Under the pieces are notes generated by a model. That model searched no databases. It was not told where the DNA came from and was given only the letters and a program-made list of their open reading frames with translations. Source: Candidatus Heimdallarchaeota archaeon (GTDB lineage: Archaea > Asgardarchaeota > Heimdallarchaeia > Hodarchaeales > Hodarchaeaceae). From it: a stretch of DNA of 18,492 nt. The DNA lies in contig CP070695.1 of the NCBI GenBank assembly GCA_020353515.1, positions 2,886,639-2,905,130 of the forward strand, read 5' to 3'. Positions 1,498 through 18,492 of the stretch are shown here, in pieces; the first letter of the stretch is position 1, and every line of letters begins with the position of its first letter. The position numbers were made by a program, and so were the translations under genes.

Positions 1498-2646
1498 TTA
1501 GAAAACATACCCATACTTTTCTGCAATTTCCCCCGTTATTTGGATGATTTTTTCTTGTTCCTTGGTTGAGAATTTAGAGATATAATAAGTAGGTTTTGTT
1601 AATCGCTTAGAATAGTATTTTTTAATCTTACGAAATTTCTTTGGATCCACTTCTATATGGTCGATGATTTTATTTATCGTTGCCTCAGATTCTTCACAAA
1701 GATCTTCATAACGAACCATTAGACTCGCTTTGGCTAGATTCGTGTTCCTTTGTAATGTTTTATGAATATATGAGTATGCTTCTGCCCAATAAACAGCCCA
1801 CCCTTCTATATATGTTTCTTTACGCTTCCAAAAAGCACGAATTTTTTGCACAATTTTTGGATTGTTAAAATTGATACAGACTTTTGCGGTTCCGAACTCC
1901 CTATGCCCGATTAATTTTGTCCAATCCAGTAATCGGGGATCGTTATGTTCCAATTCTTTTAATATTCCATCTTGTTTGGCTAGAGAAGCTATATGGTCAA
2001 AGGGGTTCCTGATAATGATGATAAATTTAACATCAGGGAATAATTTTTGTAAATATTCCATTCTAGCGACGTTATAATTGTTTTTTGCTATATAACGAGA
2101 GGCGTTTCGATTAATCAATAGCTTTTTCAGATGGTCAGAATAAAATCTTTCGAATTGTGGATTTTGAGTTGTTGTGTCCAAGATATTAGATTTAGTTTCA
2201 TCATGGGTATTCTTAAAGAATCTCTGCCAGAATATTTCCTCAACAGCCTCAGGACTATCTCGAGTGACTGCTATTCTATCTTTATGGAGCCTTTCTACTG
2301 GTGATTTCATTATAGGAGTATAATCTGCAATATTTTGAGTCCAATGTGGTGAATATGGTAAAACCATATGTAAATATCTATGTGCAGCCACGTCAGGATG
2401 TTTATTGAGCATTTCAAGAGTAATTGTAGTTCCTGCTCTTGCCAATCCCGTTACATATATCGGTCGATCGATAATGGTCTTTTCCATTCTTTTCTTCAGT
2501 TGGTATGATTCAACAGTATGAACGATATTCGCAAGAGGAGAGAAAGTATGAAAAAATTTGACAATAAAATACATTGGTGCTGGGAAGTCAAATTCTTTGA
2601 GTTTTTTTGTTTCTGTTTTCTTGATTTTGATCAAGGGACTTTTCAC
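1498..2646 (-). CDS. PAPS-dependent sulfotransferase (Sulfotransfer_3-like)
   Basis: 5'-PSB loop RPIYVTGLARAGTT, 3'-PB motif IIIRNPFDHIASL, VRYEDL, C-terminal YGY. The GTG start is uncertain; the ATG at MYFIVK is an alternative. Confidence 0.9.
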   Translation of the reverse strand: MKSPLIKIKKTETKKLKEFDFPAPMYFIVKFFHTFSPLANIVHTVESYQLKKRMEKTIIDRPIYVTGLARAGTTITLEMLNKHPDVAAHRYLHMVLPYSPHWTQNIADYTPIMKSPVERLHKDRIAVTRDSPEAVEEIFWQRFFKNTHDETKSNILDTTTQNPQFERFYSDHLKKLLINRNASRYIAKNNYNVARMEYLQKLFPDVKFIIIIRNPFDHIASLAKQDGILKELEHNDPRLLDWTKLIGHREFGTAKVCINFNNPKIVQKIRAFWKRKETYIEGWAVYWAEAYSYIHKTLQRNTNLAKASLMVRYEDLCEESEATINKIIDHIEVDPKKFRKIKKYYSKRLTKPTYYISKFSTKEQEKIIQITGEIAEKYGYVF

Positions 2647-3028
2647 GTCTATTTTACATATTGGATCTCATTTTGTAGATGAAAATAAATATCTAATTAG
2701 TGTTTATAGGCAATGAAGGATTAAACAATGTTTCTGTTTAATATTTTTGTATTTATTAAGAAAAAGACTCATAGAAAGTTGTAGAATTTCATTATACTGG
2801 ATGTAAAAGCTTAAGATACTTTTTATTTGTCAATTAGATAGTTGATTACAATATGAATGAGAACATTATAGTGATTTTTTCAAAGGCACTATTATTTTCA
2901 TTCCATTTTACATTTTTAAAAGTTCATATGAGGCATAAAGAAGAGAAAAAATTAGAATATTTCATGAGAAATAATAAATGGTCTTAAAATAATTTCTTGA
3001 TTTATTATCCTCCAGGATTGTATGAGAT

Positions 3029-4912
3029 ATGCCTCTAAACAGCTCTAAAAAGGATTCTAAAGGAAGAACGTTTAAGTTTCAAGCTGAGATTCAACGAGTG
3101 CTAGACATTCTGATAAATCGTTTATATAAAAACCGAGAAATTTTCCTTAGGGAATTAATTTCCAATTCTGCTGATGCTTTACATCGGATGCGAATCGTAC
3201 AATTTGAAACGAAAGATTCTATCCTTGATCCTGATATTGAACTTGGAATTAAAATTACATTCGATGAGAATGAAAATACCTTAACAATTTCGGATACAGG
3301 CGTTGGAATGTCCTATCAGGAGATCAAGACCAACCTTGGTACTATTGCTCAAAGTGGAACTCTAGAATTTTTACAGCAATTAGAAGAGTCCCCTGATGCA
3401 ATTAACTTAATTGGTCAATTTGGTGTTGGATTCTACAGTTCCTTCATTGTGGCAAAGGAGGTTGTTGTCCGTTCTCGTTCGTATCCAGAAGATTCTCGAG
3501 GAGTAGAATGGCGATCCGACGGATCAGGTAAGTTTTCAGTCGCCTATGTTGACAAAGCTGACAGGGGAACTGAAGTTATTCTTTATCTAAAGGATGATAC
3601 CAAGGAGTTTGCTAATAGGTTTAAACTGGAATCCATTGTCAAAAAGTACAGTGATTTTGTAGGTTTTCCCATTCGTATTGCAGATGATGACCAAATTGTG
3701 AATCGTCAAGTTCCTATTTGGTACCAATCTGATGAAGTTACTGATGAAGAATTTAACGAGTTTTATCGTCAAGTGAGTTTAGATTGGACGGAACCTTTCC
3801 ATCGGATTCAACTAAACGTTGATGCTCCAATCCAATTTCGCGCACTGCTGTTTTTACCCAAACAACGCAGTCGAATGATGATGACATCTATGTATCAAGA
3901 TTATGGTCTCCGTTTATACAGTAAGAAAATCTTAGTTCAAGAAAAAGCGAAGGATCTTCTGCCTGAATACCTTCGATTCGTTTTTGGCGTGGTCGATAGT
4001 GAGGACCTTCCACTCAATGTATCCAGAGAAGTGATTCAGGTAGATCGAACTATACGTCGGATATCAAAAGTTATTACTGGCAGAATACTTGATGAGCTTG
4101 AGAAAATTGATGAGGATAAATATTTAGAATGGTGGGAACAATTTGGGGTGTTCATTAAAGAAGGCATTTCTCAAGATGAGAAACGACGTAAAAAGCTTCT
4201 AAATCAGCTTAGGGTAAGAACCTCAAAATCAGAAGATCAACTTATTGCCTTAACCAAATACGTTGAACAAATGCCGGATGTGCAGGAAGAGATCCTTTTT
4301 CTTCTAGGTGAAAGTCTCCCGATTCTAAAACGCAGTCCTCATTTAGAACACTATAGAAAAGTAGATCAAGAAGTAATTCTTTTCTCAGAACCTATAGATA
4401 GTTTCGTCGTTATGCATGTAACTGAATTTCAAGGTAAGAAATTCAAAGCTATTGACCAAGCAGAAGCGGAACCCTTTAAGGATGAGGATAAAGAGGAAGA
4501 AGAAACAAAGGAAGAGAAAGAAGAACCAGAGAAGGATCCATTCCTAACCCACTTAAAAGAAATACTAGAAGATCGAATTATTGATATAAAATATACTGAT
4601 TTTTTAACAGATAGTCCTTGTCGTCTTGTGAATCCTTCAGGCACTACAGCATTCACTCGAGTCTTAAAGTATATGGATGAAAACTATGTTCCTCAAAAGA
4701 AGATCATGGAAATCAATCCAGACCATTCTCTAATAATTAATTTAAATTCTTTATTTGAAAAAGACCCAGAGTCTCCTCTTATTCAAATATGTGCTTTCCA
4801 GTTGTTAGAAAATCAAGAATTAGCTGAAGGATCGTTACAAGATCCGACTGATATGATTAAACGAGTGAATCAACTGATGCAACAAGCCTTGGGAATAAAT
4901 CGAAATTCGTAG
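3029..4912 (+). CDS. htpG: Molecular chaperone Hsp90/HtpG
   Basis: FQAE, LYKNREIFLRELISNSADAL, DTGVGM, NLGTIAQSGT, IGQFGVGFYSSF, GVVDSEDLPLNVSRE, MEINPDH. No long N-M charged linker and no MEEVD, so HtpG/TRAP1 type. Confidence 0.97.
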   Translation: MPLNSSKKDSKGRTFKFQAEIQRVLDILINRLYKNREIFLRELISNSADALHRMRIVQFETKDSILDPDIELGIKITFDENENTLTISDTGVGMSYQEIKTNLGTIAQSGTLEFLQQLEESPDAINLIGQFGVGFYSSFIVAKEVVVRSRSYPEDSRGVEWRSDGSGKFSVAYVDKADRGTEVILYLKDDTKEFANRFKLESIVKKYSDFVGFPIRIADDDQIVNRQVPIWYQSDEVTDEEFNEFYRQVSLDWTEPFHRIQLNVDAPIQFRALLFLPKQRSRMMMTSMYQDYGLRLYSKKILVQEKAKDLLPEYLRFVFGVVDSEDLPLNVSREVIQVDRTIRRISKVITGRILDELEKIDEDKYLEWWEQFGVFIKEGISQDEKRRKKLLNQLRVRTSKSEDQLIALTKYVEQMPDVQEEILFLLGESLPILKRSPHLEHYRKVDQEVILFSEPIDSFVVMHVTEFQGKKFKAIDQAEAEPFKDEDKEEEETKEEKEEPEKDPFLTHLKEILEDRIIDIKYTDFLTDSPCRLVNPSGTTAFTRVLKYMDENYVPQKKIMEINPDHSLIINLNSLFEKDPESPLIQICAFQLLENQELAEGSLQDPTDMIKRVNQLMQQALGINRNS

Positions 4913-4987: not shown

Positions 4988-6013
4988 ATGCCAAGGAATG
5001 ATACAAAAAAAGGCACTAGTGCGACTGAGGGGTTGATTATAACCATTTTTGAGGATTATGGTCCTCAGAACATCTATAATTCTTCTCCATTATCTGAGGA
5101 AGAGGCTTTCAATCTTGCTATTAAATCTTTAACTGCACTAAGTTCAGATATTCCCCAATTTGGAGAGATTCGTTCTTATGGACCAATACCAACACCTCGG
5201 GATCCCTTCTTAACAATTGGATTCATTTTTTCTTTAAAAGCAGTGGATTCTGAAGATGTTCGTATTACTCAGTTTGGTAGAATAGTAGTTTTTTGGGTCA
5301 TAACGCGATCTAGCTCAACAGTAAAATATGTTGGTGTTCTAAAGCAATTGTTACGGAGAACAATTCGGTCATATAAGATACGTACAGATATTGATCTTAA
5401 TAATAAGGAAGTATTGAAAAAAATTGATGAGAAATTGCAGATTATAGAGACTGGTATTGAGTCGTTTTATTTAACAGATAGGGGGACGTTTGAACCTTTT
5501 TTAGAACTCGCTCTTCTTCCTACAAACGCTCCAATTATGTTGGTCGATAACCCAAATAAGCAGATAAATGTTTTATTACGAGAAGAAGTTACACCTTCAC
5601 TTAAACTTAATATGCTACATCTTACTAAGAATTTCGCGGGGAAACTGCCCAAAGGATCCCTCTACAAAGTAGAAATTATATCAGATGAGTTAACTGTTCA
5701 AAGAATGCTTTCTAAAATTGGGTTGATCTCTCAAACCGAAACAGGCTTTCAATATCGAATCCGATTTACCTCTCAACTCTCCTACGATGAAGTTGATGAA
5801 TGTTTAAATTCTCTCTTTACTCAGAAAAGACAATCATTGGCAAAATTGATTGTCCTTTCATATGAGAAGAAATCTCCATTAAACCTTGAGGAGGCTGCAG
5901 TTCAAACAGGAATTTGTGAAGCAATGGTAAAAGATTTAATTTTTGGTTTAATAGATGTTGGTCTTGTTAAAAATGGGAAAATCGAGAATGGCTTTTTAAG
6001 TTTCAATAAGTAG
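4988..6013 (+). CDS. Longin/uDENN-like + possible gelsolin-like + C-terminal winged-helix (PCI-like) protein, paralog 1
   Basis: 341-aa ORF colinear with 6101..7138. IITIFEDYGPQ hairpin; FIFSLKA..DVRITQFGRIVVFWVI; C-terminal LNLEEAAVQTGICEAMVKDLIFGLIDVGLVKNGKIENG. CDS is secure; domain calls are inferred. Confidence 0.65.
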   Translation: MPRNDTKKGTSATEGLIITIFEDYGPQNIYNSSPLSEEEAFNLAIKSLTALSSDIPQFGEIRSYGPIPTPRDPFLTIGFIFSLKAVDSEDVRITQFGRIVVFWVITRSSSTVKYVGVLKQLLRRTIRSYKIRTDIDLNNKEVLKKIDEKLQIIETGIESFYLTDRGTFEPFLELALLPTNAPIMLVDNPNKQINVLLREEVTPSLKLNMLHLTKNFAGKLPKGSLYKVEIISDELTVQRMLSKIGLISQTETGFQYRIRFTSQLSYDEVDECLNSLFTQKRQSLAKLIVLSYEKKSPLNLEEAAVQTGICEAMVKDLIFGLIDVGLVKNGKIENGFLSFNK

Positions 6014-6100
6014 ATTTGTGGCTAAGCAGATTACTTATTATTTCAGCCTCAGATATAAAAAAAATATGAATCAGAGTTTTAAGAAATGTAGGTTTAAGCC

Positions 6101-7138
6101 ATGAGTAAGGAAAATACGTCTAGTGGAAGCACAATAACAGATGGTTTAATTATTTCAGTTTTTGAAGATAATGGTCCTGTTAATGTATATAATTCTTCCC
6201 CGTTAAACGAAAGTGAAGCATTTAATATGGTTTTAAAGGCATTACCAGCAATAGGCTCTGATGTTCCACTAGAACATGGGGAAATACGTTCATACGGGCT
6301 TATACCAACACCCAAAGAACCTTTTTTATGTTTAAGTTTTATTTTTATGCTGAAAGCAGAGAAAACAGATGACTCTAGGATTGCTCGTTTTGGACGAATA
6401 ATAGTATTCTGGATAATAACAAGATCTTCTGCCCTAATGAAATATATTGGACTTATCAAGCGCATGATTAGGCGAGAAATTCAAATTTACCACATTAAAA
6501 CTGATACTGATCTGAAAAAAGAGGAAATTATGAGAAAGATTGATAAGAGAATCCAAATCATTGAAGTAGGTATTGAGAGTTATTATATCTCTGATATGAA
6601 TTCAATTGAGTCATTTTTAGATCTTGCATTTGTTCCTAAAGAAGCGCCAATTATGTTGGTGGATAAGCCAAATAATCAAATTAAGGTGTTATTGAGAAGC
6701 CATTCTAATCCGAGTAGAAAAATGGAATTATTACAGTTAGTAAACGATTATAAGAGAAACATTCCAAAGGGTACGATCTATAAAACAGAAATAATCTCTG
6801 ATTCTCTTACAGTTCAACAATTATTAGCTAAGACTGGTTTTATTACTCAATTTGATATTGGTACTACCATTAGACTTCGATTTACTAATGAGCTGACCTT
6901 TGAGGAGCTTGACAGCTTTTTTAACTTTCATCTTACACCTAAAAGGCAGCAGTTGGTTACTCAAATTATACAAGCTACTGATAGCAAAATTCCATTAAAT
7001 CTGTATGAATTATCGGTCCAAACCGGGATAACAATGGAATTAATTGAAGAGTTTATTGCGAGTGCTATAAACTCGGGATTAATTCAAGATTTCGAAATTA
7101 AGAATGGATCCCTTGTTTTTATAAAAGAAGTGGAATAG
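6101..7138 (+). CDS. Longin/uDENN-like + possible gelsolin-like + C-terminal winged-helix protein, paralog 2
   Basis: 345-aa ORF sharing YNSSPL, EAFN, GEIRSYG, IPTP, FGRI, FW-ITRSS, APIMLVD, PKG, EIISD, PLNL and QTGI with paralog 1. Confidence 0.65.
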   Translation: MSKENTSSGSTITDGLIISVFEDNGPVNVYNSSPLNESEAFNMVLKALPAIGSDVPLEHGEIRSYGLIPTPKEPFLCLSFIFMLKAEKTDDSRIARFGRIIVFWIITRSSALMKYIGLIKRMIRREIQIYHIKTDTDLKKEEIMRKIDKRIQIIEVGIESYYISDMNSIESFLDLAFVPKEAPIMLVDKPNNQIKVLLRSHSNPSRKMELLQLVNDYKRNIPKGTIYKTEIISDSLTVQQLLAKTGFITQFDIGTTIRLRFTNELTFEELDSFFNFHLTPKRQQLVTQIIQATDSKIPLNLYELSVQTGITMELIEEFIASAINSGLIQDFEIKNGSLVFIKEVE

Positions 7139-7201: not shown

Positions 7202-8113
7202 TTATAAAAGACCTCGAACGATATTGGCGATTTGTTCCATTTTAACAAGCACATAATGAAGAGGTGCGACCTTCTTGGCAATTCCAGTAAGAAGGAGTTC
7301 CTCTTTAATTTTATGAAAGACAAACATATAATCATCTGTTTCTAAAGTCGTTTTAAAGGTAACTTCAGTCTCGAACTCAGTTTTAATTCTATCGTAATTA
7401 GTTAACCAGAGATTAGCTGGAAGGATGATTCTTTCCACTAATTCACCCTCTTCAAATACAGGTAATCCATCATCAGTATATATTGCGATTCCTGATAGCT
7501 CGCTATGTTGTTTGATGAATTCCTGTATTGCATCAGATACAGTTTTTGCCTTTGTACTCTGGAGTATTAATGTTTGTATCATTTCACCAATAGCCAAGTA
7601 TATTGATTGATCAAAGATTGAAGTTTTACGATAATAAATTTTAATATCTTTGACAGGAATAAAATACTGTTTCATGGTTTCACTAACTTGCTCACGCATA
7701 TCAGGCAGTAAAAGATCAAGTTTATGAAATAAGCAAAAAACAATGGCGCTAGGAGAAAACTCTGCCAGTCTATTTACTGCGTGATCAAAATAAAATTTAC
7801 TTGTTGAGACTTGATCAAAATTACTAACATCAACTACCCAAACAAGAATTGTAACATCACTAAATATGAATTCAGCCTGTTCTCCGACAAATACAGAAAT
7901 AAAACTCTCTTGGCCACCACAATCAAAAATCTGGAATGCACTATCAATGATGCTTTTTGTTGAACGCGTGTAATTTATTGTCGCAGAATAATCTTTTACA
8001 TCCTCTGGTGATTTTCCTTCGAAAACTACTGACCTAATGCTACTCTTACCACTCGCTCCAAGTCCCATGAATAGTACTTTTTGCGCTGGAGGTGTTATTG
8101 TCAATAACTTCAA
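7202..8113 (-). CDS. Rag/Gtr1-family (RagA-like) small GTPase with C-terminal roadblock-like domain
   Basis: G1 KVLFMGLGASGKSSIRSVVF, G2 SATINY, G3 FDCGGQ, G4 FCLFHKLDL, G5 KTSIFD match RagA/Gtr1 motifs. C-terminal LSGIAIYTDDGLPV...LLLTGIA is roadblock-like. The true start may be TTG at 8104, which has GAGG 9 nt upstream. Confidence 0.9.
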   Translation of the reverse strand: MKLLTITPPAQKVLFMGLGASGKSSIRSVVFEGKSPEDVKDYSATINYTRSTKSIIDSAFQIFDCGGQESFISVFVGEQAEFIFSDVTILVWVVDVSNFDQVSTSKFYFDHAVNRLAEFSPSAIVFCLFHKLDLLLPDMREQVSETMKQYFIPVKDIKIYYRKTSIFDQSIYLAIGEMIQTLILQSTKAKTVSDAIQEFIKQHSELSGIAIYTDDGLPVFEEGELVERIILPANLWLTNYDRIKTEFETEVTFKTTLETDDYMFVFHKIKEELLLTGIAKKVAPLHYVLVKMEQIANIVRGLL

Positions 8114-8510
8114 CCTCTTGCTAGTTTCTTTTCTTTAGGTGAGATATAATGAAATTTCTTTTAAATTTATCTGAACAGTAGTATGAAGTTTAAATAAAGA
8201 GAGTTTTCTTAAAACTTGTTTTGGAATTATTAACTCCCTCATTACATGTATCATTTTCAACTCTGATGAAACATGAGTTGATTTCTCAGATTACGAAATC
8301 TATTGAATATGGGTCACCATATTATTTTAACTTAAAAATAAAGTCGAACTAGTAATAGCTAAAACTTGAATTGTCCATTAATCAAGATTATCTGTATTTT
8401 GCATACATGATGAGAGGTTTTTCAGTACTATTTATAACATACAGGAAATTAAAAAACTTAAACATAAAAAAAAACTGGCCAAGTTAGTTGGTCAATAACT
8501 TTAGGTTTAA
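8114..8510. promoter_or_regulatory. Divergent promoter region between the two GTPase genes
   Basis: 397-bp AT-rich gap between head-to-head genes. TATA-like TTTATAA at 8431-8437 (+) and TTTAAAA at 8165-8159 (-). Specificity is low in AT-rich DNA. Confidence 0.4.
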
Positions 8511-10730
8511 TTGCAAATGTCTGAATGGGTGTCTGAATCTGAAATAACGGCTCGATTGGGTTATAAAATATTGATTGCTGGCTTAAGTGAAGCTGGGAAG
8601 ACTGCCGTAAAAAGAATTTTCTTTCTTAAACAGCAGACTGAAGATGTTGATAGTCTTTCGGCTACAATCAATTATGAAAGGATGTCACTTACGATCCATG
8701 ATACACCAATCACGATTGTAGACCTTGGTGGACAGAAGATATTCTTAAAACGATTCTTAAGCGGATTTAGCCCATTTGTCTTCAGTAGTGTGAAAACTTT
8801 TGTTTTTCTAATTGATGTGGCCAATAAAACTTCTCGGAATAATGCAATTCAATATTTTCAATCTTGTCTCGAAAAACTCTCAACTTTTTCTCCTGAAGCC
8901 ACAATCTTCGTTTTTCTACATAAAAACGATTTAGTAAGAGACTCACCTAATTATGAAAGTATTCATGAACAGTTAAAGGAACAATTTCAACTAGAATCTT
9001 CCCAAAAACTCAGATTTTTTCGAACTACAATTTACAGACCAGAAACAGTTATTAATAGTTTCGGGCGCATTTTTGAACTAACTATTCCCCAATTAGCTGA
9101 AAGTGAGTTTGTTGATTTTAAAACAATAGGTACAATTGAAGAACATCATGAAGAAGATATGACAATACGAGATTCAACACCTAAAGCTGAAATAGATCAA
9201 AAACCCGAGCCAATTTCTCCTACTGCTCCCAAAATAGCTGGCAATCAAGTAATCTTGAAGAAGTTACAAGGTTTGATGCAGCAAGCTGTAAAAAAAGAGT
9301 TTCCATCAGCATATCATTCCCCAAACCAAATGTCTCAAAAAGCCATATTTCTTGGAAATGCTGCAACAGAAGAATCTACTACGGAAACAATCTTAACTTC
9401 AGCAAAAGTGGTGGAGGAAACACCCACTTCTCCACAAATAGAAACCCAGCCGCATTCTACGCCGGTAGATGAAGAATCCATTGCATCTGAAGCTCAAGAA
9501 ATATTGAAACACGAAATAACAGAAATAAATCCCCAAATCAGTCATTTGGTGGACTTTTTCCGAATAGAAGCAAACGAAGCTGTAGAGATCGTTAATACTG
9601 GGTATGGCGATGTTTTTGAAATGGCAGTTACATCAGGGATTCCAATACCACTTGTAACTGATGTCATGTTGAAATATTTACCCTTTATTCAAAAATCACA
9701 AGGACTTGAGAAATATAAGCTAATAAATCGGGAAAAGTTATTAGAATTATTTCATGTTTTCTTGAAAGGACAATTACAAGAAAAAGATATAGTTAAATGC
9801 CTTGTATTAGTAACAGAAAAACCTAAAATGAGTATTGATGATATTGCAAAGAACTATCTCACTCCAAAGAAAAAGGTAAAAAAGAAGAAAGAAATCAAGG
9901 AGAAAATCCCGCTTGACTTTGCAAAACTAGACATCCCTGTTGAAGCAGAAAGTGTTGAAGGAATTATTACTTTACCCGATACTCAGGGAATGGGCTTTAA
10001 AGTCGAGATTATTAAACCAGAATGTTTGAATGCTCGTTTAACATTCCATTTACAAGGCCCTGTTGGCCAACGAGAACTTATTGGAAGCTCAATAGTTTCA
10101 ACTAAGATTACAAGTCAAGAGATCCTTTATCTTTTAGCTTACGAGATGAATATGACAGGATTGGGTATTTTTGAAGATGGAATCGGTTCTATGAATTTCG
10201 CTGCAAAGATAATTCGTGAGGCAATCCAACAAGTTCGTGAAGAGAACTTAAGCTCCACATCAGAGGTAAAAACCAAGAAAATCCGAAAAGAGGAGGGATA
10301 TCTGACTGAAACCATAAGTTTCATTATTCCTATGGAGATTAAAATTGAGGAAAATCACATTCTCATCCCTGACAGTGAGAAGGTAGCTTTTTTAGTAGAA
10401 AAAGCTAAGAAAGGGCTATTATTAAGTTTCGTCCAGCGAGGTTTTCCCATAGGCCAAGTAAATGTTGCAGACTCCATTACTGTTCCTCAAATTCGAAGAT
10501 TATTAAAAGAAGCAATGCAGATACCAATTGAGTCAGAAGGAGCCGTTGATTTTGCAAGTCGTATTATCCATGCTGCTATAAGAAGTCTAATTGAATCACC
10601 AGAAGCAGTACTTCCAATTAAATCAACAAAAATCCAACCTAAAATTATAGAAAAACCTGTTTTAGAAGAACCAAGAGATGAGACGTCAGAGAAACTCTTG
10701 AGTTACCTAGAACTTCTAGAAAAAGACTGA
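8511..10730 (+). CDS. Rag/Gtr-like GTPase with long C-terminal extension (linker, helical domain, two repeated alpha/beta domains)
   Basis: KILIAGLSEAGKT, SATINY, DLGGQ, FLHKNDL and FRTTIY in the first ~190 aa. Start is TTG 8511 or ATG 8517. Confidence 0.85.
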   Translation: MQMSEWVSESEITARLGYKILIAGLSEAGKTAVKRIFFLKQQTEDVDSLSATINYERMSLTIHDTPITIVDLGGQKIFLKRFLSGFSPFVFSSVKTFVFLIDVANKTSRNNAIQYFQSCLEKLSTFSPEATIFVFLHKNDLVRDSPNYESIHEQLKEQFQLESSQKLRFFRTTIYRPETVINSFGRIFELTIPQLAESEFVDFKTIGTIEEHHEEDMTIRDSTPKAEIDQKPEPISPTAPKIAGNQVILKKLQGLMQQAVKKEFPSAYHSPNQMSQKAIFLGNAATEESTTETILTSAKVVEETPTSPQIETQPHSTPVDEESIASEAQEILKHEITEINPQISHLVDFFRIEANEAVEIVNTGYGDVFEMAVTSGIPIPLVTDVMLKYLPFIQKSQGLEKYKLINREKLLELFHVFLKGQLQEKDIVKCLVLVTEKPKMSIDDIAKNYLTPKKKVKKKKEIKEKIPLDFAKLDIPVEAESVEGIITLPDTQGMGFKVEIIKPECLNARLTFHLQGPVGQRELIGSSIVSTKITSQEILYLLAYEMNMTGLGIFEDGIGSMNFAAKIIREAIQQVREENLSSTSEVKTKKIRKEEGYLTETISFIIPMEIKIEENHILIPDSEKVAFLVEKAKKGLLLSFVQRGFPIGQVNVADSITVPQIRRLLKEAMQIPIESEGAVDFASRIIHAAIRSLIESPEAVLPIKSTKIQPKIIEKPVLEEPRDETSEKLLSYLELLEKD
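9927..10589 (+). repeat. Protein-level tandem duplication of a ~90-105 aa domain
   Basis: Copy 1 (~9927-10235): IPVE..IITLPDTQGMGFKVE..IGSSIVSTKITSQEILYLL..MNFAAKIIREAI. Copy 2 (~10320-10589): IPME..HILIPDSEKVAFLVE..IGQVNVADSITVPQIRRLL..VDFASRIIHAAI. Confidence 0.75.
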
Positions 10731-10780: not shown

Positions 10781-12106
10781 TCACTTGTGATCTTCAGTAG
10801 TGGTCATATATTTTCCAAAAAGATTCAAAATATCATCCATTGCAATTTGGAGTTGTTCCCGATTTACTCCTTTCGATCTTTCAAACCAACCGCGTTTAAT
10901 CGTTGATTTTGAGTCGTCATGATATGCTATTAAATTTGTAGCGTCATTGAAGACATCACGTAGTTCTGGAATAAGAGGTAAACCAAAGAGTAAGAGAATA
11001 GAAGACCGGTCTATATTTGGATCATCATAAGTCACAAATGATGGTTGTATCGATCCGCCTTTTACAAGGTAAGGTGCAAGAATCTTTTTTAAGTGAGCTG
11101 AATATTCTAGCTTAGCTATATCCTTATGTCCACTAAAAATGGAATAAACAGAACCAGCCATGGGTTTTGTTTCAATATCAGTTAAAGAACAGTGATTAAC
11201 AGCATATCTTGCTGCGAGAGCCATCTGTTTTTCCATACTACCATATTTAGGTAGAAAGTACATATCCTCGAAATAACAAGGAACCACCACTGGATCCAAT
11301 CTTCGGGAATAATCAGCTAGATCTGTAGTTGGCATGACTTTTTTGCCTGGTTCCTGAATGCTTGGGGAAAGAATTGCCTCTATAGTTTGTAAAGCCAACG
11401 GATTTACCAACTGAGTAAATTCTACCTCTGTTTCCATTCGCTGTTGCTCATCACTTGAAGCTAAGTCAGCAGAATCAATGCCTAAAGATTGGTCTAGTAA
11501 TGCACTTGCACGCCCCTCCCTCCAAGCCATAACCCTTTTTAACATTGTTTTATTTGATAATAAAAAGATCAAATTAGGCCCTTTGTTTGGTTCTAATTGA
11601 TTTCTTAATAAGGTTGATAACGACCAGATTGAGTTTATTGCTTCTGATGATTGATTCTCAAACGGTAAAACACCAAATACATAAATAAAAATTCGTCGTT
11701 CTTCTGAAAATTGCTTATGGAGAAGTTCTACTAGTGCTGGGGTTCCACCACAACCAGTACCACCTCCAAGACTGGTTAGAATGATAAAACCAGAGACCCC
11801 CTCATATCCAAGTCCTTTTAATTGATTAAGAATAAGATCCTGATTTTTTATGACAAGATCATAACCTTCCTTAAATTTTCCTCCCACACCTATTTCTTCA
11901 TCAGAATACATCAGAGTATTTTGGTTAGGAATTGAATACTCAGTACGTGTTTTCATAAGATCAGTCTTATCAGTGTTTATTATAAGATATTCACGGATAC
12001 GAGATGCTCCTGTTTGTTTCTTACTTTTTTGGATGTAGGAACCTACAAGATTTGAGCCACATTCTCCTGCTCCAATTATGAATACATCTGCTTCTCTACT
12101 TACCAC
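10781..12106 (-). CDS. Tubulin/FtsZ/CetZ-superfamily GTPase, divergent, with tubulin-like C-terminal helices
   Basis: T1 IIGAGECGSNL, T2 INTDKTDL, T3 GVGG, signature SLGGGTGCGG, VLPF, LSN, T7 TTDLADY. GTG start with AGGAGG SD. Confidence 0.92.
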   Translation of the reverse strand: MVSREADVFIIGAGECGSNLVGSYIQKSKKQTGASRIREYLIINTDKTDLMKTRTEYSIPNQNTLMYSDEEIGVGGKFKEGYDLVIKNQDLILNQLKGLGYEGVSGFIILTSLGGGTGCGGTPALVELLHKQFSEERRIFIYVFGVLPFENQSSEAINSIWSLSTLLRNQLEPNKGPNLIFLLSNKTMLKRVMAWREGRASALLDQSLGIDSADLASSDEQQRMETEVEFTQLVNPLALQTIEAILSPSIQEPGKKVMPTTDLADYSRRLDPVVVPCYFEDMYFLPKYGSMEKQMALAARYAVNHCSLTDIETKPMAGSVYSIFSGHKDIAKLEYSAHLKKILAPYLVKGGSIQPSFVTYDDPNIDRSSILLLFGLPLIPELRDVFNDATNLIAYHDDSKSTIKRGWFERSKGVNREQLQIAMDDILNLFGKYMTTTEDHK

Positions 12107-12114
12107 AATAGGAT

Positions 12115-12120
12115 CCTCCT
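12115..12120 (-). promoter_or_regulatory. Shine-Dalgarno AGGAGG overlapping the upstream gene's TAG
   Basis: Plus-strand cctcct at 12115-12120; upstream stop at 12121-12119; 8 nt to GTG 12106. Confidence 0.75.
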
Positions 12121-15100
12121 ATCTATTTGTTACATAGAGTTCTACCGCTGAAGATAAATATTGAATCATCGGTTGATGATTATATGCTTCCTCAATTTCT
12201 CGTTTGGCATTTGCAATATAAGTTATCTGTTCATCACTGTTAGTCGTTGGTTTATAATCACTAATAAATAAAAAGAGAACATTGTGCCATTTTGAAATCA
12301 CTGGTAACCAATCTTGCTTCCATTGCGTTTTTAATTTGGAGATTGTTGTTAAAAGATCATAAATTTCCATTAGATTAGCTGATGATTGAATTTTTTCTCT
12401 TGCAGCATTTAATTCATTGAGTGAGAAAATCTCTTTTGAGCATTCTTCAAGTTTAAATCGAAAAACTTCTTGAATACTCTGATAATATGGTAATCTTGGA
12501 TCAGTTTCTAGTTCAGATAAGTAACTATCAAAGTTCTCCTGTTCTAATTGTCGAATAGCCTGAATGAGTTCCTTTGACCTTTGTATTACTTCAACTGTTG
12601 ACTTAGCGATGAGATCAAAGGACCAAAATTGAATCGCTACTTTTGCTTGTTTAATTGCGACAACTTGAGGCATTAATAAATGTTGAGCGTTTTTCCAACC
12701 TAATGCTTGAACAAAATCAAATATCCTACCAGCAATGTCATTATTATCTTCAATTATTTTAAATAATGATTTCTGAAGCTCCTCATTTTTTAATATCTTA
12801 TCCAGTTCTACAAAAGATTGAGTAATCATTTCAATAGACATCATATCAGAAGAATCTGCTTGAACTAACTGTGTAAAGACTTCGATTTGTTCTCCTACTA
12901 AATTTTGGAGACTAATTCCAAGAGCTTGAAGTTCAGCAATCCGCATGAGTAAGTTTTTGCTTGAGATGCTTAGGAGTTCCATAAGTTTTGCTAATAAGAC
13001 ATATTCGTAATCATGGATGGTTTCAATGACCAAACGATGGATAGATTCAAGAGTTTGATCTTTTCTGGGAATTGTGCTCTCTAAATAGCTATAGACCTTA
13101 CGAACTTCTGGGGAAACCTCTCCCATTACTTCTGTGATTCGGGGAAGACTAACTGTGACCTTATTGTAATAGAAAGCTTTTAATTTCTCAAGACATTCTT
13201 GGGATTTACTAGTTGCGCTACTAAGATAAAATTCAAACTTTGACAACGCTTCTTCTGCGCCTAATGATAGGTTTAATTCTGATAAGGCGGAATCAAGTAT
13301 CAGAAATAGAGGATTAAAAATAGCTGAATAATGTGGTGGCAGAGATTTGTACTGTTTTAACCAGTTTGACAAGATTTCCCGACATTTTAGCTGGACTAGT
13401 TCTGTTTTTTTATTGTTAAATGTGGATAAACGGAACCATAATTCTAAGAGCTCAGAGTAATCCAAAGCTTCAAGATCTCTAGGAATTTCAAAAATAGGAT
13501 CTGATCCAATTACCTCGTTGAAGTATTTTAAGGATGATTGGTTTGTCCTTTCCATTAGATCAATCTGTTTTAAGGTTTCTTCGATCATCAGATTTTTAGA
13601 AGAAGACATCACTTTTTTGAAGTCAAAATAAGCTCTAATTGTGGAGACGAAATTTCGACTAGCCGCAGTTCCAGTTAATTGGGTTAATAGAGTGTTTTTC
13701 TCTTTTCTCAAATCTACTGGAACCTCTCCAGGTATCATTGGAAATGTCAAAGAATCAATTTTATTTTTGAGAAATGAAATTACTTCTCGTTTCCATTCCT
13801 CTACTTTTTCAATTCTACTAAGTAATTCAGATAGGTCCAACTCACTAGCATCTTCAACAAATGGAGGACGGGGAATCTGTGAATCTGATTCAAGTAACTG
13901 TAGCACTGTAACGTCTTTTAAGAAGTCCTTTATGAATGCGGCCGTTAATGTAACAAATTGTTTATATAATCGTTCATAAGATCGTCGGTACAGTAAAAGA
14001 GTTTGTACTTCGGATTCTGAAGCCATCTTCTCATAAAGAGATGTAAGTTCAGCTTGAAAATTAGGCGGAAAACTGCTTATTCCCTTTCTTTCTAATTGGT
14101 TAACATTGATTATTGTGTCATTTACGGCGTGTCTAGTCTCCTGTAAAACATTAACTAGCCTGTGTTTCCAAATAGTGACTGCTCGAAGATAACTTAATAA
14201 CTCAGAAGGACTGTCAGATTGCAGATTAACATTTGGTGGTTTGAGTGATATCAATGCACTGGAGTCAGAATCAGTGAAATCCAAGCTCAAACTGTCACTA
14301 ATCTTGTCACGTAGAATATTAAGAAACTCATTATAATAAGTTTGAAAATGTTTCAATTTTCTTACTGCTTCTTCAATATTAACTTCTTCTTGGACCTGAT
14401 TAGCACTTTCAGTTGCATTTGCTAATAAAGTATTGGGTATACTAACCCCCTCCTGAAGAGCTCCCTCTGTGACTTGCTTCATTTCTTCAACAGAAGCAAA
14501 TTTCTTTATCCCGCCGAGAATCTGGCTTTTCCATTTATTTATCTTTTCAAAATAGGTCATTAATTCAGTGATAGAAGCTTTTGGATCTAATTCAGGAGGT
14601 GAAGCCATCCATTTGTCTGTGAGTGCAGGGAACATTCCTTGAATCTGGACGATTAAATTTCTTGTTGTTGTTCTTGCACGTGTTATCTCTGATTTAAGCG
14701 TTGTTCTGTATTTTGTAGTATATTGTGAGATTTTAGAGTTTAGTTGATTCAGCTCACCAATCGATTTTGCCATTTCAATCTGATTAATAATCTCTTTAAT
14801 TCCATGGTATTCCTCCATATCGGGAATGATTTTCCTTTTAGCTCCCTCTTGGATAGAATAAATTAAATCATGAGCTGACTGCAGTAATTTCTCTTGAACA
14901 GTTTCAGATGATACAGTAAGTTGTTGATTAATGAGTTCCTCTTCTTTTTTAAGAGTAGAATACGATTTTAATAAATCAGAGATCGCAAGAGAATTGAGAG
15001 TGTCTTTTGTTAGGATTTTTGTTTGTTGATATATACTTGCGTCGAGAGAGATGAGATCTTTATACATTTCTATTTTAGATTGGTTATCGTTCAGAATTAC

Positions 15101-15541
15101 TTCGCAAAGTGATCTTATTTGCATAGTTGTTTCAGCTTGAACTTTCTCTACTTCTTCAAGAAAAGATGACATTGTATCAATTTCTGAAGTCAATGGAAAC
15201 CTCAGATTCCTTAAAAAACTCGCAGCTTGGGGAGCAACAGCTGATAGGGCTTGGATTTGAGTTTCAAGGAGAGGTTTTAGATCTTTTATCAAAGAATTAA
15301 AGATACATTGCAAACAAGCTTCCTCAGATCCCATTAAATCCGACTGTAACTCTTCCTGTTGCTTTTTTAATCCCCGTTTAGCGAGTCGTCCAGCTTTATC
15401 AACTTCTGCTTCTAACTGAGATTTTTGCTGAATAAGCTTAGATAACTTTGTCAGTTCAGGTGCGCAAACAGGTTTTGAGAGGAGCTTATTAATTTTGGAA
15501 AGAATTTCTGATATTAAGGTTAAGTTATCTGAAGACATCAA
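12119..15541 (-). CDS. Large all-alpha-helical repeat/coiled-coil protein of unknown function
   Basis: 1140 aa rich in L/E/K/Q/S, with no evident TM segment or P-loop and a ~120-127 aa internal period. Start is probably ATG 15538. Confidence 0.8.
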   Translation of the reverse strand: MMSSDNLTLISEILSKINKLLSKPVCAPELTKLSKLIQQKSQLEAEVDKAGRLAKRGLKKQQEELQSDLMGSEEACLQCIFNSLIKDLKPLLETQIQALSAVAPQAASFLRNLRFPLTSEIDTMSSFLEEVEKVQAETTMQIRSLCEVILNDNQSKIEMYKDLISLDASIYQQTKILTKDTLNSLAISDLLKSYSTLKKEEELINQQLTVSSETVQEKLLQSAHDLIYSIQEGAKRKIIPDMEEYHGIKEIINQIEMAKSIGELNQLNSKISQYTTKYRTTLKSEITRARTTTRNLIVQIQGMFPALTDKWMASPPELDPKASITELMTYFEKINKWKSQILGGIKKFASVEEMKQVTEGALQEGVSIPNTLLANATESANQVQEEVNIEEAVRKLKHFQTYYNEFLNILRDKISDSLSLDFTDSDSSALISLKPPNVNLQSDSPSELLSYLRAVTIWKHRLVNVLQETRHAVNDTIINVNQLERKGISSFPPNFQAELTSLYEKMASESEVQTLLLYRRSYERLYKQFVTLTAAFIKDFLKDVTVLQLLESDSQIPRPPFVEDASELDLSELLSRIEKVEEWKREVISFLKNKIDSLTFPMIPGEVPVDLRKEKNTLLTQLTGTAASRNFVSTIRAYFDFKKVMSSSKNLMIEETLKQIDLMERTNQSSLKYFNEVIGSDPIFEIPRDLEALDYSELLELWFRLSTFNNKKTELVQLKCREILSNWLKQYKSLPPHYSAIFNPLFLILDSALSELNLSLGAEEALSKFEFYLSSATSKSQECLEKLKAFYYNKVTVSLPRITEVMGEVSPEVRKVYSYLESTIPRKDQTLESIHRLVIETIHDYEYVLLAKLMELLSISSKNLLMRIAELQALGISLQNLVGEQIEVFTQLVQADSSDMMSIEMITQSFVELDKILKNEELQKSLFKIIEDNNDIAGRIFDFVQALGWKNAQHLLMPQVVAIKQAKVAIQFWSFDLIAKSTVEVIQRSKELIQAIRQLEQENFDSYLSELETDPRLPYYQSIQEVFRFKLEECSKEIFSLNELNAAREKIQSSANLMEIYDLLTTISKLKTQWKQDWLPVISKWHNVLFLFISDYKPTTNSDEQITYIANAKREIEEAYNHQPMIQYLSSAVELYVTNR
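13390..14602 (-). repeat. Protein-level helical repeats, period ~120-127 aa
   Basis: aa~314 SPPELDPKASITELMTYFEKINKWK; ~434 KPPNVNLQSDSPSELLSYLRAVTIWK; ~558 RPPFVEDASELDLSELLSRIEKVEEWK; ~685 EIPRDLEALDYSELLELWFRL. Confidence 0.7.
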
Positions 15542-15603
15542 TGGCCATCCCTATTGACTACTTTTTACTTGTCATTTTTAAAATAGTTTATATTACAAAT
15601 CGA

Positions 15604-16539
15604 TCATATTTCAGTACTAGAGGATTGAATCTGATCCAATGCTAGAGAACAACGAGCAATATATTCCGCAATTTCTTTAACCTGAGATCTAAGTGTTTTT
15701 CGTACAGTTAGATCTACAAATCGAAATGGAACATTTGACAAATCTTCCCCTGTAGTTCCCAAGATTGTCTCTGTGATTTCATTGAGCTTTTTAGAAATAT
15801 GTGTAGACATAACCGAGACATATTTTGCCCTTTCATCTTGAATCATAAGGCCAAGACTTAATCGGTGTAATTGTCCTTTATCTAACCATTTTGCAGGAGT
15901 ATAGATGAATATAGAGAAAGATTTATCAGCAACTTCAAGATTAAGCACAGAGGAGCCAAGATCTTTTCCAAATTGATCATCTTTTTGTGTTGACTCTTCG
16001 ATCTGTTTTTCAGCAAATAGAGAAAATACATCCAAAATTTCCTTTTTATCGACATCTGTAAATTCAAGAATTGTTTCCCAAAGGCTAGAAGTTGAACCTT
16101 GAAGTGCTGAAAAAAAATCAATTATTATTACAACATTGGCTTCCTTCATAACATTGTAGACTTCTTCATAAGGTATAGTTTCAGAAAGAGCTACCATACT
16201 TTGAAAAGTAGAAGCATCAGCTTCTAATAATGAAACAAACTCCGTTTCTGCTGAACTTGTTTCTCCGACTTCTTCCCCAAAAGCCATAAAAGCAATGTCT
16301 TCAAGATCCATCTCTTGAAGTTCTTGCTTTTGCTTTTCCCTCTCTTGTATATCTGAGAATAGAGCGTCGACCATTGATGAATCATAAAATAATTGATAAA
16401 TCCTCATCATAAGATCATCTAAACTCTTACCTTCTCCATCTTCCATATATTCTTTTAAAATTGACCGCATGACAACATGTTTCGCAATTCGTGCACCACG
16501 AACTTGATCTTCCACTTCTTCTGTGACAAATTGGGACAT
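15604..16539 (-). CDS. Hypothetical protein: acidic helical N-terminus plus possible degenerate longin/uDENN-like domain
   Basis: 311-aa ORF with ATG start. VVIIIDFFSALQGS and FSIFIYTP..WLDKGQLHRLSLGLMI follow the longin strand order. CDS is secure; the domain is tentative. Confidence 0.55.
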   Translation of the reverse strand: MSQFVTEEVEDQVRGARIAKHVVMRSILKEYMEDGEGKSLDDLMMRIYQLFYDSSMVDALFSDIQEREKQKQELQEMDLEDIAFMAFGEEVGETSSAETEFVSLLEADASTFQSMVALSETIPYEEVYNVMKEANVVIIIDFFSALQGSTSSLWETILEFTDVDKKEILDVFSLFAEKQIEESTQKDDQFGKDLGSSVLNLEVADKSFSIFIYTPAKWLDKGQLHRLSLGLMIQDERAKYVSVMSTHISKKLNEITETILGTTGEDLSNVPFRFVDLTVRKTLRSQVKEIAEYIARCSLALDQIQSSSTEI

Positions 16540-16728
16540 TTTTCTTCATCTTAACAGAAATGTTAATCCCATTAATTATTTAATAATTAAATATTCAATC
16601 GAGTTCAGTTTATAAGTTATCATGCTAATCATAATTAAACCTTTTTTAAATCTTCTAATTGTAAAAACCTATTACACTAGTCTCTTCTCTCTTCGACATG
16701 AGAAGTGAAAGTTTCTTCATATTTAATA

Positions 16729-17094
16729 TTAATGTGTGATTCTTAGTATTATATTGTCGAGTTCTTTTGATTTTATAATAAGGTATTGAAAATTTATTCT
16801 TTTTTTTTTTCCGACTCGTTCCCACACCTTTTTTAGAGTTTGTTTTGTCCAAATCATTCCTGAATTCTTTGAACATGGCTGTTTATACACTTTCTCAATC
16901 TTGAATGATGTTCCTAGACCTTCATCATCAATGTTCCAAAATGAAGCCAGTATTTCCGTAAGATCCCAAGCTTCTGCAGCAGAAGATGCTGATATAAAGG
17001 CGCAATTATCTACTCGTCTATCATCTAGTACTATTGTGAATTTTACATAGAAGATTTTTTCAATTAATCCGTCATTGGACATATTTCTTTCCAA
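16729..17094 (-). CDS. Small hypothetical protein
   Basis: 121-aa ORF filling the gap and co-oriented with its neighbours. AAGGGG lies upstream of the TTG (alternative ATG 17082). The C-terminus after an A11 tract is uncertain. Confidence 0.5.
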   Translation of the reverse strand: MERNMSNDGLIEKIFYVKFTIVLDDRRVDNCAFISASSAAEAWDLTEILASFWNIDDEGLGTSFKIEKVYKQPCSKNSGMIWTKQTLKKVWERVGKKKRINFQYLIIKSKELDNIILRITH

Positions 17095-17140: not shown

Positions 17141-18492
17141 TTAATTTTCTTCTGTAATTAGTTCAGTTGTCCCATAAATCTTTTCATATGATAACACGAT
17201 TGACGAGACTAATTGTCTCAATTTAAAGACTTTACTACGAATTTTGTTCTTGTCTGAATCCTCATTGTCCATAAGTTTGTGTATTGCGTGTATTTTCCCT
17301 TTAATCTCCTCTTTGAAAGATTCAACTAATGGGAATAATTCTTGATGAACTAAAATGTTACAAGTAAGATTCTCTTGGCCTCCTCTAGCAGTTGGCCGTT
17401 CTAACGCGTACCCAAAACTCAGTACACTAGTACGAAGACCTCGGGCTAATACAAAGTCATAACTAGAAGGGATCTCAGTATCAAAGTCATCACAAAAGCC
17501 AGTACCACTAAAAGATCGATCAGAAAGGTCCACCAGCTTTGAAAAGTTATCTTTCAAAATTTCTGGTATAACTATAATTGGGATAGGCCCGTGTCGTTGG
17601 TCGAAAAACGATACCACTACCCCAATTGTGTGAGAATCAAGTGATGCCATTACTTCAGCTTCAGAGATATCTGCAATTTTATCAAGGACTAATTCTTTGT
17701 CAAGACCAACCAATTCGGGTTTTCGAATGAATTTCACATATACAACAGAACCGAAGATTGCAACGAAAATAGTGATCCCAACAATAAGCAGGACAAATGT
17801 GGGTTCAATACCTGCTGATATATAATTAAAGCGGGTTTCACTGATGCGATCAGGATCATCTAGTATATCATAAGCAATACCACTATTTCCCGCGCTATCT
17901 GTGGTTACAATATAGTACAAAATATCTCTACTCGTACCATTATGATCAAAGGGAACAGTGACCTTATAAATCGGAACACCGTCCGTAGTGGTATTATGAT
18001 AAACCATACTTGCTTTTCGGTATAGTTCCGCCTCCTCTTGGCTAATAGATGATCCTAATCCTGCTAAAGACTGGGTAGTTTCGTTGGATGCCTCCCTAAA
18101 GTAGTAATAAATCGATACATCGGTAATGTCAGACCCATATTCAAGAATTCCAGTGTAAAAAGCAATTTCTGTGGGATTACTTGGATCATCAAGCTTGTAT
18201 CTCGTTAACTCCTTTTTCACTCGGGGGGGAGTTAAATCCTTTACTGTCAAGTTGAAGGTCACTTGTGAAATAATATCATATTGTCGCAAGTTTTCACTGG
18301 AATTGTATTCTACTGTGGCGATTGCTTTAACAACGATGACCACTGTTGTCTCAAGATATTTTTCGAGCTTTTCGATCGGAATTTGATAGTGTAAATTCCA
18401 GAGATTACCAATTGATGCTTTATCAAAGTAATCAGAGTCCGTTACATTATCATAGTATTTTATTGTGAATTCAACTTTGAAATCTTCCTCTG
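17141..18492 (-). CDS. Single-pass membrane protein: beta-rich ectodomain, TM helix, cytoplasmic folliculin/SMCR8-like longin (uDENN) domain; 5'-partial
   Basis: The frame stays open beyond GTG 18343 to the window edge (..EEDFKVEFTIKYYDNVTDSDYFDK..). Ectodomain has N-x-S/T sequons (NVT, NSS, NLT, NET, NTT, NGT) and VKDLTPP. TM FVLLIVGITIFVAIFGSVVYV (~17729-17797) is followed by KFIRK. Cytoplasmic part has VVVSFFDQRHGP and ERPTARGGQE. Confidence 0.8.
   Translation of the reverse strand, partial: EEDFKVEFTIKYYDNVTDSDYFDKASIGNLWNLHYQIPIEKLEKYLETTVVIVVKAIATVEYNSSENLRQYDIISQVTFNLTVKDLTPPRVKKELTRYKLDDPSNPTEIAFYTGILEYGSDITDVSIYYYFREASNETTQSLAGLGSSISQEEAELYRKASMVYHNTTTDGVPIYKVTVPFDHNGTSRDILYYIVTTDSAGNSGIAYDILDDPDRISETRFNYISAGIEPTFVLLIVGITIFVAIFGSVVYVKFIRKPELVGLDKELVLDKIADISEAEVMASLDSHTIGVVVSFFDQRHGPIPIIVIPEILKDNFSKLVDLSDRSFSGTGFCDDFDTEIPSSYDFVLARGLRTSVLSFGYALERPTARGGQENLTCNILVHQELFPLVESFKEEIKGKIHAIHKLMDNEDSDKNKIRSKVFKLRQLVSSIVLSYEKIYGTTELITEEN

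Follow-up and report, generated by a model that had tools for sequence, protein, structure and literature searches.

CetZ proteins are archaeal cytoskeletal proteins that do not serve division, and we know of no dedicated upstream partner gene for them. EzrA and similar long helical-repeat proteins bind the FtsZ polymer and link it to other structures. In Prosthecobacter, BtubA and BtubB are encoded in a tubulin filament operon together with BtubC, a helical-repeat accessory protein on the polymer surface (PMC9871819). The same paper, by Santana-Molina, del Saz-Navarro and Devos (2023), named Asg.Tub, a ‘CetZ-like group in Asgardarchaeota’ that is restricted to Asgard archaea, forms a phylogenetically separate group between CetZ and tubulins and is neighboured by unknown genes with coiled-coil regions. 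It gives no partner families, conservation counts, duplication or function for the group. A literature search found no later paper on Asg.Tub and none studying the module at the bench. Here we analyse a window of 18,492 nucleotides from Candidatus Heimdallarchaeota archaeon (order Hodarchaeales; contig CP070695.1, positions 2,886,639 to 2,905,130), whose minus strand carries genes for a protein with a predicted longin fold (P1), a large helical protein (the rod) and a tubulin-like GTPase. We propose, as the probable reading of this locus, a chromosomal cytoskeletal module built from a GTPase filament and a helical partner, with P1 as a possible extension. The GTPase family has already been named in the literature and the module is real and conserved; what is added here comprises counts across the phylum, paralogy within the genome with a swap of partner, variation in the rod repeats, the assignment of the T7 loop and a predicted interface.

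The genes, in the order of transcription, and the first spacer are as follows.

15604-16539, minus strand: P1, 311 residues, acidic and soluble, with helices at residues 7-120 and a predicted longin-fold domain at the C-terminus
15539-15603, minus strand: AT-rich spacer between P1 and the rod gene, 65 nucleotides counted from the rod ATG
12119-15538, minus strand: rod gene, 1139 residues from ATG; the open reading frame (ORF) from a TTG reaches 15541 and encodes 1140 residues
10781-12106, minus strand: tubulin-like gene, 441 residues, GTG start, a member of clade A (see below) of the Asgard Asg.Tub/CetZ-like family

A preliminary description of this DNA had reported three genes on the same strand with gaps of 62 and 12 nucleotides, and the ORF coordinates confirm it; the first gap becomes 65 nucleotides from the ATG at 15538, which is the more likely rod start because orthologs are 1139-1143 residues long and begin with MSS. 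The assignments as longin-like, helical and tubulin-like also hold, resting on a fold model, an all-alpha model and a match to PF00091, respectively. All three genes have many orthologs and are under clear purifying selection, and therefore none is a chance ORF.

The tubulin-like protein matches PF00091 (Tubulin) over residues 8-168 with 69.5 bits against a cut-off of 33 (E 5.8e-19). Its T1 motif, GAGECGSN at residues 12-19, is invariant in 39 family members, and N185 is invariant in the family as well. Two further motifs were located.

11747-11767, minus strand: T4 signature GGGTGCG (residues 114-120), invariant in 39 members, with a Cys at the S/T position
11312-11329, minus strand: T7-loop motif TTDLAD (residues 260-265), opposite NLDFAD of FtsZ

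T7 was placed from sequence alone, by a MAFFT alignment with the genome’s own FtsZ and CetZ-like proteins; of its acidic residues, the kind that in the FtsZ pattern NxDxxD activates GTP hydrolysis within the polymer, D262 is invariant and D265 is found in 38 of the 39 members. Another candidate, LVNPLAL-x (residues 233-240), read as a T7 loop whose catalytic acid was lost in clade A, was rejected because this alignment puts T7 at TTDLAD, which both clades retain. As the nucleotide-binding and T7 residues are all kept, the protein is probably an active GTPase that polymerises with GTP.

How does this GTPase relate to its described kin? Its closest solved relatives by sequence are CetZ1 and CetZ2 of Haloferax volcanii (4b46/4b45) and the CetZ of M. 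thermophila (3zid), the sole PDB matches at E <= 1e-5 for a profile of the 39 members; their E values are 1.7e-12, 1.4e-7 and 2.6e-8 over the GTPase domain, with a weak match in the C-terminal helix. Bona fide tubulin chains reach E values of 2e-5 to 6e-4 over about 110 residues, none at or below 1e-5 with the family profile, and the high full-length similarity to alpha- or beta-tubulin that would mark a true tubulin (eukaryotic, OdinTubulin, AtubA/B or BtubA/B) was not found. The T7 acidic residues are common to CetZ and the family studied here, but significant alignment extends over only about 150 N-terminal residues (CetZ1 at profile positions 13-158), and an insert of 40-60 residues before H7, GECGSN in T1 and the Cys in T4 distinguish the family from CetZ. 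Full-length similarity to CetZ1 and clustering with it, as membership of the CetZ family would imply, were likewise not observed. In an exhaustive HMMER search of 1.8 billion representatives, two full-length clusters at 50% identity were recovered for the family; it is tight and isolated, since scores fall from above 470 bits inside it to at most 150 bits for the next relatives. We infer that the family is Asg.Tub because its taxon range, CetZ likeness and neighbours fit that group by description, and the Heimdall LC_3 protein named ‘Tubulin-like protein CetZ’ is a member with 51% identity. Set against Asg.Tub, the window copy falls in a paralogous clade on a long branch and has another third gene. 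The preliminary description had cited FtsZ-like families that occur with coiled-coil proteins and GTPases and are proposed to remodel membranes; that background concerns other families (FtsZl/Tubulin_2), and the protein here is of the CetZ-related Asg.Tub group.

The pairing of rod and tubulin-like genes extends well beyond this genome. Across 400 Asgard genomes, the tubulin-like gene is present in 124, the rod gene in 129 and a third gene, g3, in 123; the three follow the same pattern from family to family and are all absent from the remaining families. Counted by family, tubulin-like and rod genes occur in 19 versus 21 of 21 genomes (f1), 15 versus 16 of 19 (f12), 4 of 4 (f11) and 5 of 5 (f28), with a further count of 75 versus 77 of 89; families f4 (0 of 31) and f20 (0 of 135) have neither. 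A tally by hand counts 102 pairs in which the rod gene immediately precedes the tubulin-like gene on its strand, with a gap of about 15-215 nucleotides, against three co-contig cases with wider gaps (0.57, 4.3 and 9.9 kb). Homologs are thus linked as a rule, the opposite of what the preliminary description had named as fatal to its proposal, and the operon conservation that it expected is found very strongly for the rod/tubulin-like pair and, for the longin gene, within one Hodarchaeales genus.

Several prokaryotic tubulin-like proteins with dedicated partner genes are segregation systems, and one might ask whether the module segregates the DNA of a plasmid, virus or integrated element in the manner of TubZ/PhuZ, with the rod or P1 as adaptor. 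We regard this as highly improbable. The host contig is single, 4.94 Mb long and a chromosome with even G+C; the module is inherited consistently in whole Asgard families and has housekeeping genes around it, such as those for HSP90, CDC48 and purine synthesis; there was no sign of a DNA-binding domain, an integrase or a replication gene; and the closest relatives of the GTPase are CetZ proteins, not TubZ.

The preliminary description did not notice that this locus arose by duplication of an older three-gene module, which is spread across the phylum and has another third partner. A second locus in the same genome (6849-12868 of region 684000-703000) encodes a 1171-residue rod, a 456-residue tubulin-like protein and a 359-residue g3, the tubulin-like paralog lying at contig positions 694415-695767. 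The paralogous rods are 23% identical over their full length (E 2e-61) and the tubulin-like paralogs 55% identical. The triad of rod, tubulin-like gene and g3 is also found on Thorarchaeota and Heimdall LC_3 contigs. The g3 protein has 355-392 residues, is encoded once per genome and adjoins clade B only, the clade without the window copy; an Atlas feature search with it gave no return. Clade A is confined to 8 of 22 genomes of one Hodarchaeales genus, each of which also holds clade B, and this duplicate lacks g3 and has gained the longin protein upstream. Judged from gene content and sequence, the ancestral module is rod, tubulin-like gene and g3, and the window copy is a duplicate. In a quick tree, clade A is long-stemmed and sister to the Heimdallarchaeial clade B, with Thorarchaeota outside; the root is tentative because the outgroups are distant and the tree search was short. 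The simplest history would be a duplication of the pair within Heimdallarchaeia, after which one copy diverged rapidly and exchanged its third partner. P1 was considered as a relocated g3 and rejected because neither BLASTP nor profile comparison found similarity between the two. The presence of two rod/tubulin-like pairs in one cell raises the question of partner specificity. As to the surroundings of these other copies, CDC48 and a MoCF-biosynthesis gene lie upstream of the paralogous module, and on Thorarchaeota-type contigs a gene for a WD40 beta-propeller protein of 626-656 residues lies divergently upstream of the rod gene (2185-4065; 2080-4050).

The junction between the rod and tubulin-like genes contains a signal that bears on their joint expression.

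12114-12121, minus strand: rod stop codon TAG (12119-12121) overlapping the Shine-Dalgarno (SD)-like AGGAGGA of the tubulin-like gene

The overlap had been pointed out in the preliminary description, and it is borne out by a position that coincides with the SD peak of the genome: GGAGG begins 13 nucleotides ahead of the GTG, and SD-like words peak at -13 to -11 over 2833 long ORFs, of which 21% have such a word within 20 nucleotides of the start versus 6% in a control interval. This genome-wide positioning was used in place of a match to the anti-SD. The sequence GGATCACCTCC, checked for the latter, is present once in the genome, outside any rRNA; a search of the genome with RF01959 found no archaeal 16S rRNA, and the rRNA of this assembly, which contains 11,231 N, may be unassembled. 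The stop codon, a GAGG or GGGG motif and a spacer of 12-13 nucleotides recur in five further genomes, all with an ATG start. The 12-nucleotide gap and the SD-like motif over the stop argue for the two genes being on one transcript, from which rod and tubulin-like protein would be made by coupled translation. A putative promoter for the whole cluster precedes P1.

16640-16650, minus strand: TATA-like element TTTAAAAAAGG, about 100 nucleotides upstream of P1, putative cluster promoter

A similar ATATTTT(T)AAA(A) element is comparably placed in four more clade-A loci. P1 may be co-transcribed with the rod gene.

The rod has no match in Pfam or NCBIfam. Its AlphaFold2 (AF2) model is all-alpha, with helices of up to 50 residues and a mean predicted local distance difference test (pLDDT) score of 83.5. 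By sequence it matches the rods of Thorarchaeota and Heimdall LC_3 and the paralog in the same genome, and the Thorarchaeota rod cluster was the sole return of an Atlas feature search; by the searches made, the rod and g3 are protein families without known relatives. The best fold matches, of BAR, catenin and vinculin-like type, are short generic helical bundles whose scores are too low to carry meaning for helical proteins, and no family is assigned to the rod. The following parts of the rod and of the GTPase are of interest here.

13499-14623, minus strand: three weak internal rod repeats of about 125 residues each (residues 306-430, 425-552 and 550-680)
12167-12478, minus strand: C-terminal bundle of the rod with the predicted interface (residues 1021, 1083-1094 and 1114-1124)
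11192-11266, minus strand: predicted rod-binding surface of the GTPase (residues 281-305, M-loop/H9 by alignment)

The repeat units match each other reciprocally by hidden Markov model (i-Evalue 1e-5 to 3e-4). There are three here, about five in the 1396-residue Heimdall LC_3 rod and one in the 871-residue Thorarchaeota rod, and rods outside the order match the profile at 3-360 and 628-1139 only. Rod length therefore varies by repeat number, and the parts common to all rods are about 360 N-terminal and about 510 C-terminal residues.

A complex of rod and tubulin-like protein, which the preliminary description had suggested modelling, was predicted in three runs with rod residues 580-1139 and alignments that we built ourselves. 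The runs gave ipSAE values of 0.68, 0.68 and 0.67 versus 0.00 for the best control and so support binding, on a score that is the model’s own confidence, obtained with our own alignments and for the C-terminal half of the rod only; in a benchmark, 58 of 80 solved complexes and 2 of 110 mismatched pairs attained the mark applied to this score, counts that are rough for self-built alignments. At least 88% of the contacts are common to the runs, and the partner pLDDT is at least 78. The predicted interface coincides with the maximum of between-clade conservation in the rod, which had been computed before the complex was predicted, and W1084, H1085, L1088, F1091, I1115 and Y1119 are at least 90% conserved. 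On the GTPase, the interface also takes in residues 198 and 204 of the family-specific insert, and D281, P286, G289, Q294 and Y301 are conserved across the family. We know of no comparable complex, so that the prediction is unlikely to repeat a known structure. The model thus supports binding of the rod C-terminal bundle to the M-loop/H9 face of the tubulin-like protein, and the earlier idea of a scaffold dedicated to the filament holds up to the extent that the predicted contact fits it.

What would such a contact mean for a filament? The rod C-terminal bundle would dock on the lateral M-loop/H9 face and on the family-specific insert of the GTPase. As this contact is a lateral surface, the longitudinal interfaces of the polymer would stay free, and instead of capping the filament the rod would decorate or tether it. 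The central repeats, from one to about five of some 125 residues, would act as a spacer, and the conserved N-terminal region of the rod would hold a further partner. The third component would be g3 in the ancestral module, and in the clade-A duplicate P1, encoded upstream. The same contact could be used differently by a stoichiometric assembly factor or inhibitor, which would hold unpolymerised GTPase in the way of tubulin cofactors, stathmin or negative FtsZ regulators and block lateral association. The tight translational coupling, which suggests near 1:1 production, would suit such a factor, as would a contact on the lateral M-loop/H9 face of one subunit and a rod far bigger than simple bundling requires. 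Yet this role appears improbable to us: the longitudinal interfaces are free in the model, a conserved N-terminal region joined to variable repeats fits a spacer or tether better, and searches of Pfam/NCBIfam, Foldseek and VIA-align found no resemblance to any known cofactor.

A rod that decorates or tethers the filament invites comparison with the systems introduced above. In the Btub system, true tubulins build mini-microtubules and the accessory protein, BtubC, consists of tetratricopeptide repeats; the module here has a single CetZ-like GTPase, and its rod is unrelated to BtubC and four times larger. The likeness to EzrA is a functional analogy, given that there is no sequence or fold match, no transmembrane anchor and a different GTPase family.

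P1 is less readily placed. It has no match in Pfam or NCBIfam, and its 43 orthologs, at 52-96% identity, carry names such as Hodarchaeales and Hodarchaeota, with locus tags that run consecutively with those of the rod and tubulin-like genes. Among the 400 genomes, P1 occurs in 7, only those with the clade-A pair, while the eighth clade-A locus is cut by a contig end; it lies directly upstream of the clade-A rod gene wherever the contig permits.

15634-16164, minus strand: predicted longin-fold domain of P1 (residues ~126-302)

The AF2 model of P1 has a mean pLDDT of 72.9, with 75-92 across the longin domain. The domain runs through strands 137-144 and 148-155, helix 162-182 and strands 198-203, 206-213 and 225-234, followed by helices. 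Compared by VIA-align, its best match is the longin domain of Lst4 (Z 11.1, root-mean-square deviation 3.3 A, 142 residues aligned), followed by C9orf72 (Z 10.4), TRAPP (Z 10.2) and FNIP2 and Loki Roadblock-Longin (both Z 8.9); almost all of the top 40 rows are longin proteins. The top Foldseek match is 8yqg (E 2.8e-4), and the Atlas neighbours are Asgard hypothetical proteins, C9orf72, FLCN/SMCR8 and sedlin. These comparisons support a longin fold (beta-beta-alpha-beta-beta-beta-alpha(-alpha)) in the modelled C-terminal half of P1. The same predicted fold is found in FLCN-FNIP/Lst7-Lst4, C9orf72-SMCR8, NPRL2/3, TRAPP and the Loki Roadblock-Longin protein (8yqg). Like the longin regulators of Rag and Rab GTPases, P1 is seen in the company of such switches, being encoded near two Rag/Gtr1-like genes; it differs from them in having no significant sequence similarity and an extra helical N-terminus of 120 residues. 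To our knowledge, no longin regulator has been tied to a tubulin-like operon. The two Rag-like genes lie beyond the tubulin-like gene.

8511-10730, plus strand: 739-residue Rag/Gtr1-like GTPase, convergent with the tubulin-like gene (PF04670, E 9.3e-31)
7202-8113, minus strand: 303-residue RagA/Gtr1-like GTPase (PF04670, E 1.8e-39)

A Rag/Gtr1-like gene is found immediately downstream of the tubulin-like gene, in convergent orientation, in all six clade-A loci examined; in the five other than ours it is a homolog of the 739- or the 303-residue form. As a longin-fold protein encoded near Rag-like genes, P1 may connect the clade-A filament system to a Rag-type GTPase switch; the part of GTPase-linked adaptor, which the preliminary description had given it, is suggested by its modelled fold together with the adjacent Rag-like gene.

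A number of observations weigh against the module as proposed, and most of them concern P1. The P1-rod spacer is 41-70 nucleotides long in six genomes, poorly conserved and AT-rich with TATA-like runs, so that it may contain an internal promoter and P1 could be transcribed separately. The Rag-gene linkage may be plain inherited synteny, because the six clade-A loci all come from one genus, and clade-B loci are without GTPase neighbours. P1 is also weakly colinear with the longin tails of giant surface proteins of the kind encoded upstream (hhalign E 0.0054, probability 6.7%), and in this same weak alignment ARGG of the receptor tail, a putative Arg finger such as marks GAP longins of the FLCN/NPRL2 type, stands opposite DKGQ of P1 (in WLDKGQ), which has a Lys. 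As for the pair itself, other unknown genes intervene between rod and tubulin-like genes in two species. The fold search with the rod found no specific relative (best Foldseek E 0.02, best VIA-align Z 9.4), and its overall shape, and hence its elongation, is uncertain at a predicted template modelling score of 0.38; to this are added the limits of the complex score given above. No transmembrane segment was found in P1, the rod or the tubulin-like protein, and any membrane link would therefore be indirect.

Taken together, the P1 observations could mean that the rod/tubulin-like pair is real while P1 and the Rag-like GTPases are mere neighbours, P1 serving an upstream receptor/Rag system: the spacer that parts P1 from the rod, the single genus, the weak alignment with the giant tails and the fact that clade-B modules work without P1 or GTPase neighbours all agree with it. 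We consider this unlikely. P1 is confined to clade-A genomes, its place immediately upstream of the pair on that strand is always kept, also among orthologs with no more than 52-60% identity, and the gene upstream of P1 varies among genomes while the P1-rod junction is constant.

If P1 does belong to the filament module, we speculate, with little expectation of being right, that Hodarchaeales possess a duplicated tubulin-family filament system that P1 couples to a Rag GTPase switch of eukaryotic type. In this picture P1 would be related to the longin tails of giant surface receptors but lack their finger, and the nucleotide state of the neighbouring Rag-like GTPases would decide whether it recruits the rod-decorated filament or lets it go. 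Such an arrangement would prefigure, in a prokaryote, the way in which small GTPases are coupled to the cytoskeleton in eukaryotes. The Hodarchaeales belong to the archaea most closely related to eukaryotes, as far as is known, and the construction and control of their cytoskeleton bear directly on eukaryogenesis. True tubulins have been reported from about 1% of the Asgard genomes surveyed (PMC13394414); the rod/tubulin-like module occurs in about a third of the 400 genomes considered here and is near-universal in several families. It also offers handles for experiments, namely the partners rod, g3 and P1, the named interface residues, the two paralogous modules and the possible Rag link.

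Some minor features of these loci may be recorded. In the two species with intervening genes, the protein inserted between the clade-B pair has 1202 residues (G058:C96, 2855-6463) or 773 residues (G061:C230, 4469-13390); these two proteins share 61% identity and show no relation to rods, and in G061:C230 the pair is parted by further genes as well, one of them for an AAA ATPase. In the window, the end of a giant protein is encoded upstream (17141-18490, minus strand). Its C-terminal tail of about 200 residues is one of a multi-copy family (about 100 matches in the genus, 6 copies in this genome) that forms the end of open frames as long as about 10,000 residues. The 739-residue Rag-like form is single-copy in this genome; a search around the other tail copies in the genome found no gene of its type nearby, and a general pairing of receptor and Rag protein was not confirmed. 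The upstream neighbour of P1 is not fixed, because an unrelated 121-residue ORF (16729-17094, minus strand) replaces here a conserved gene of about 250 residues found upstream of P1 in other clade-A genomes. The latter is metallophosphoesterase-like (SDIHSN...GDLVGYGPDP) and was located in three clade-A loci at 7454-8254 (L009), 385-1116 (L011) and 9082-9837 (L012). Finally, two tandem genes of 341 and 345 residues (4988-7138, plus strand), with no Pfam match, adjoin the Rag/Gtr1-like pair.

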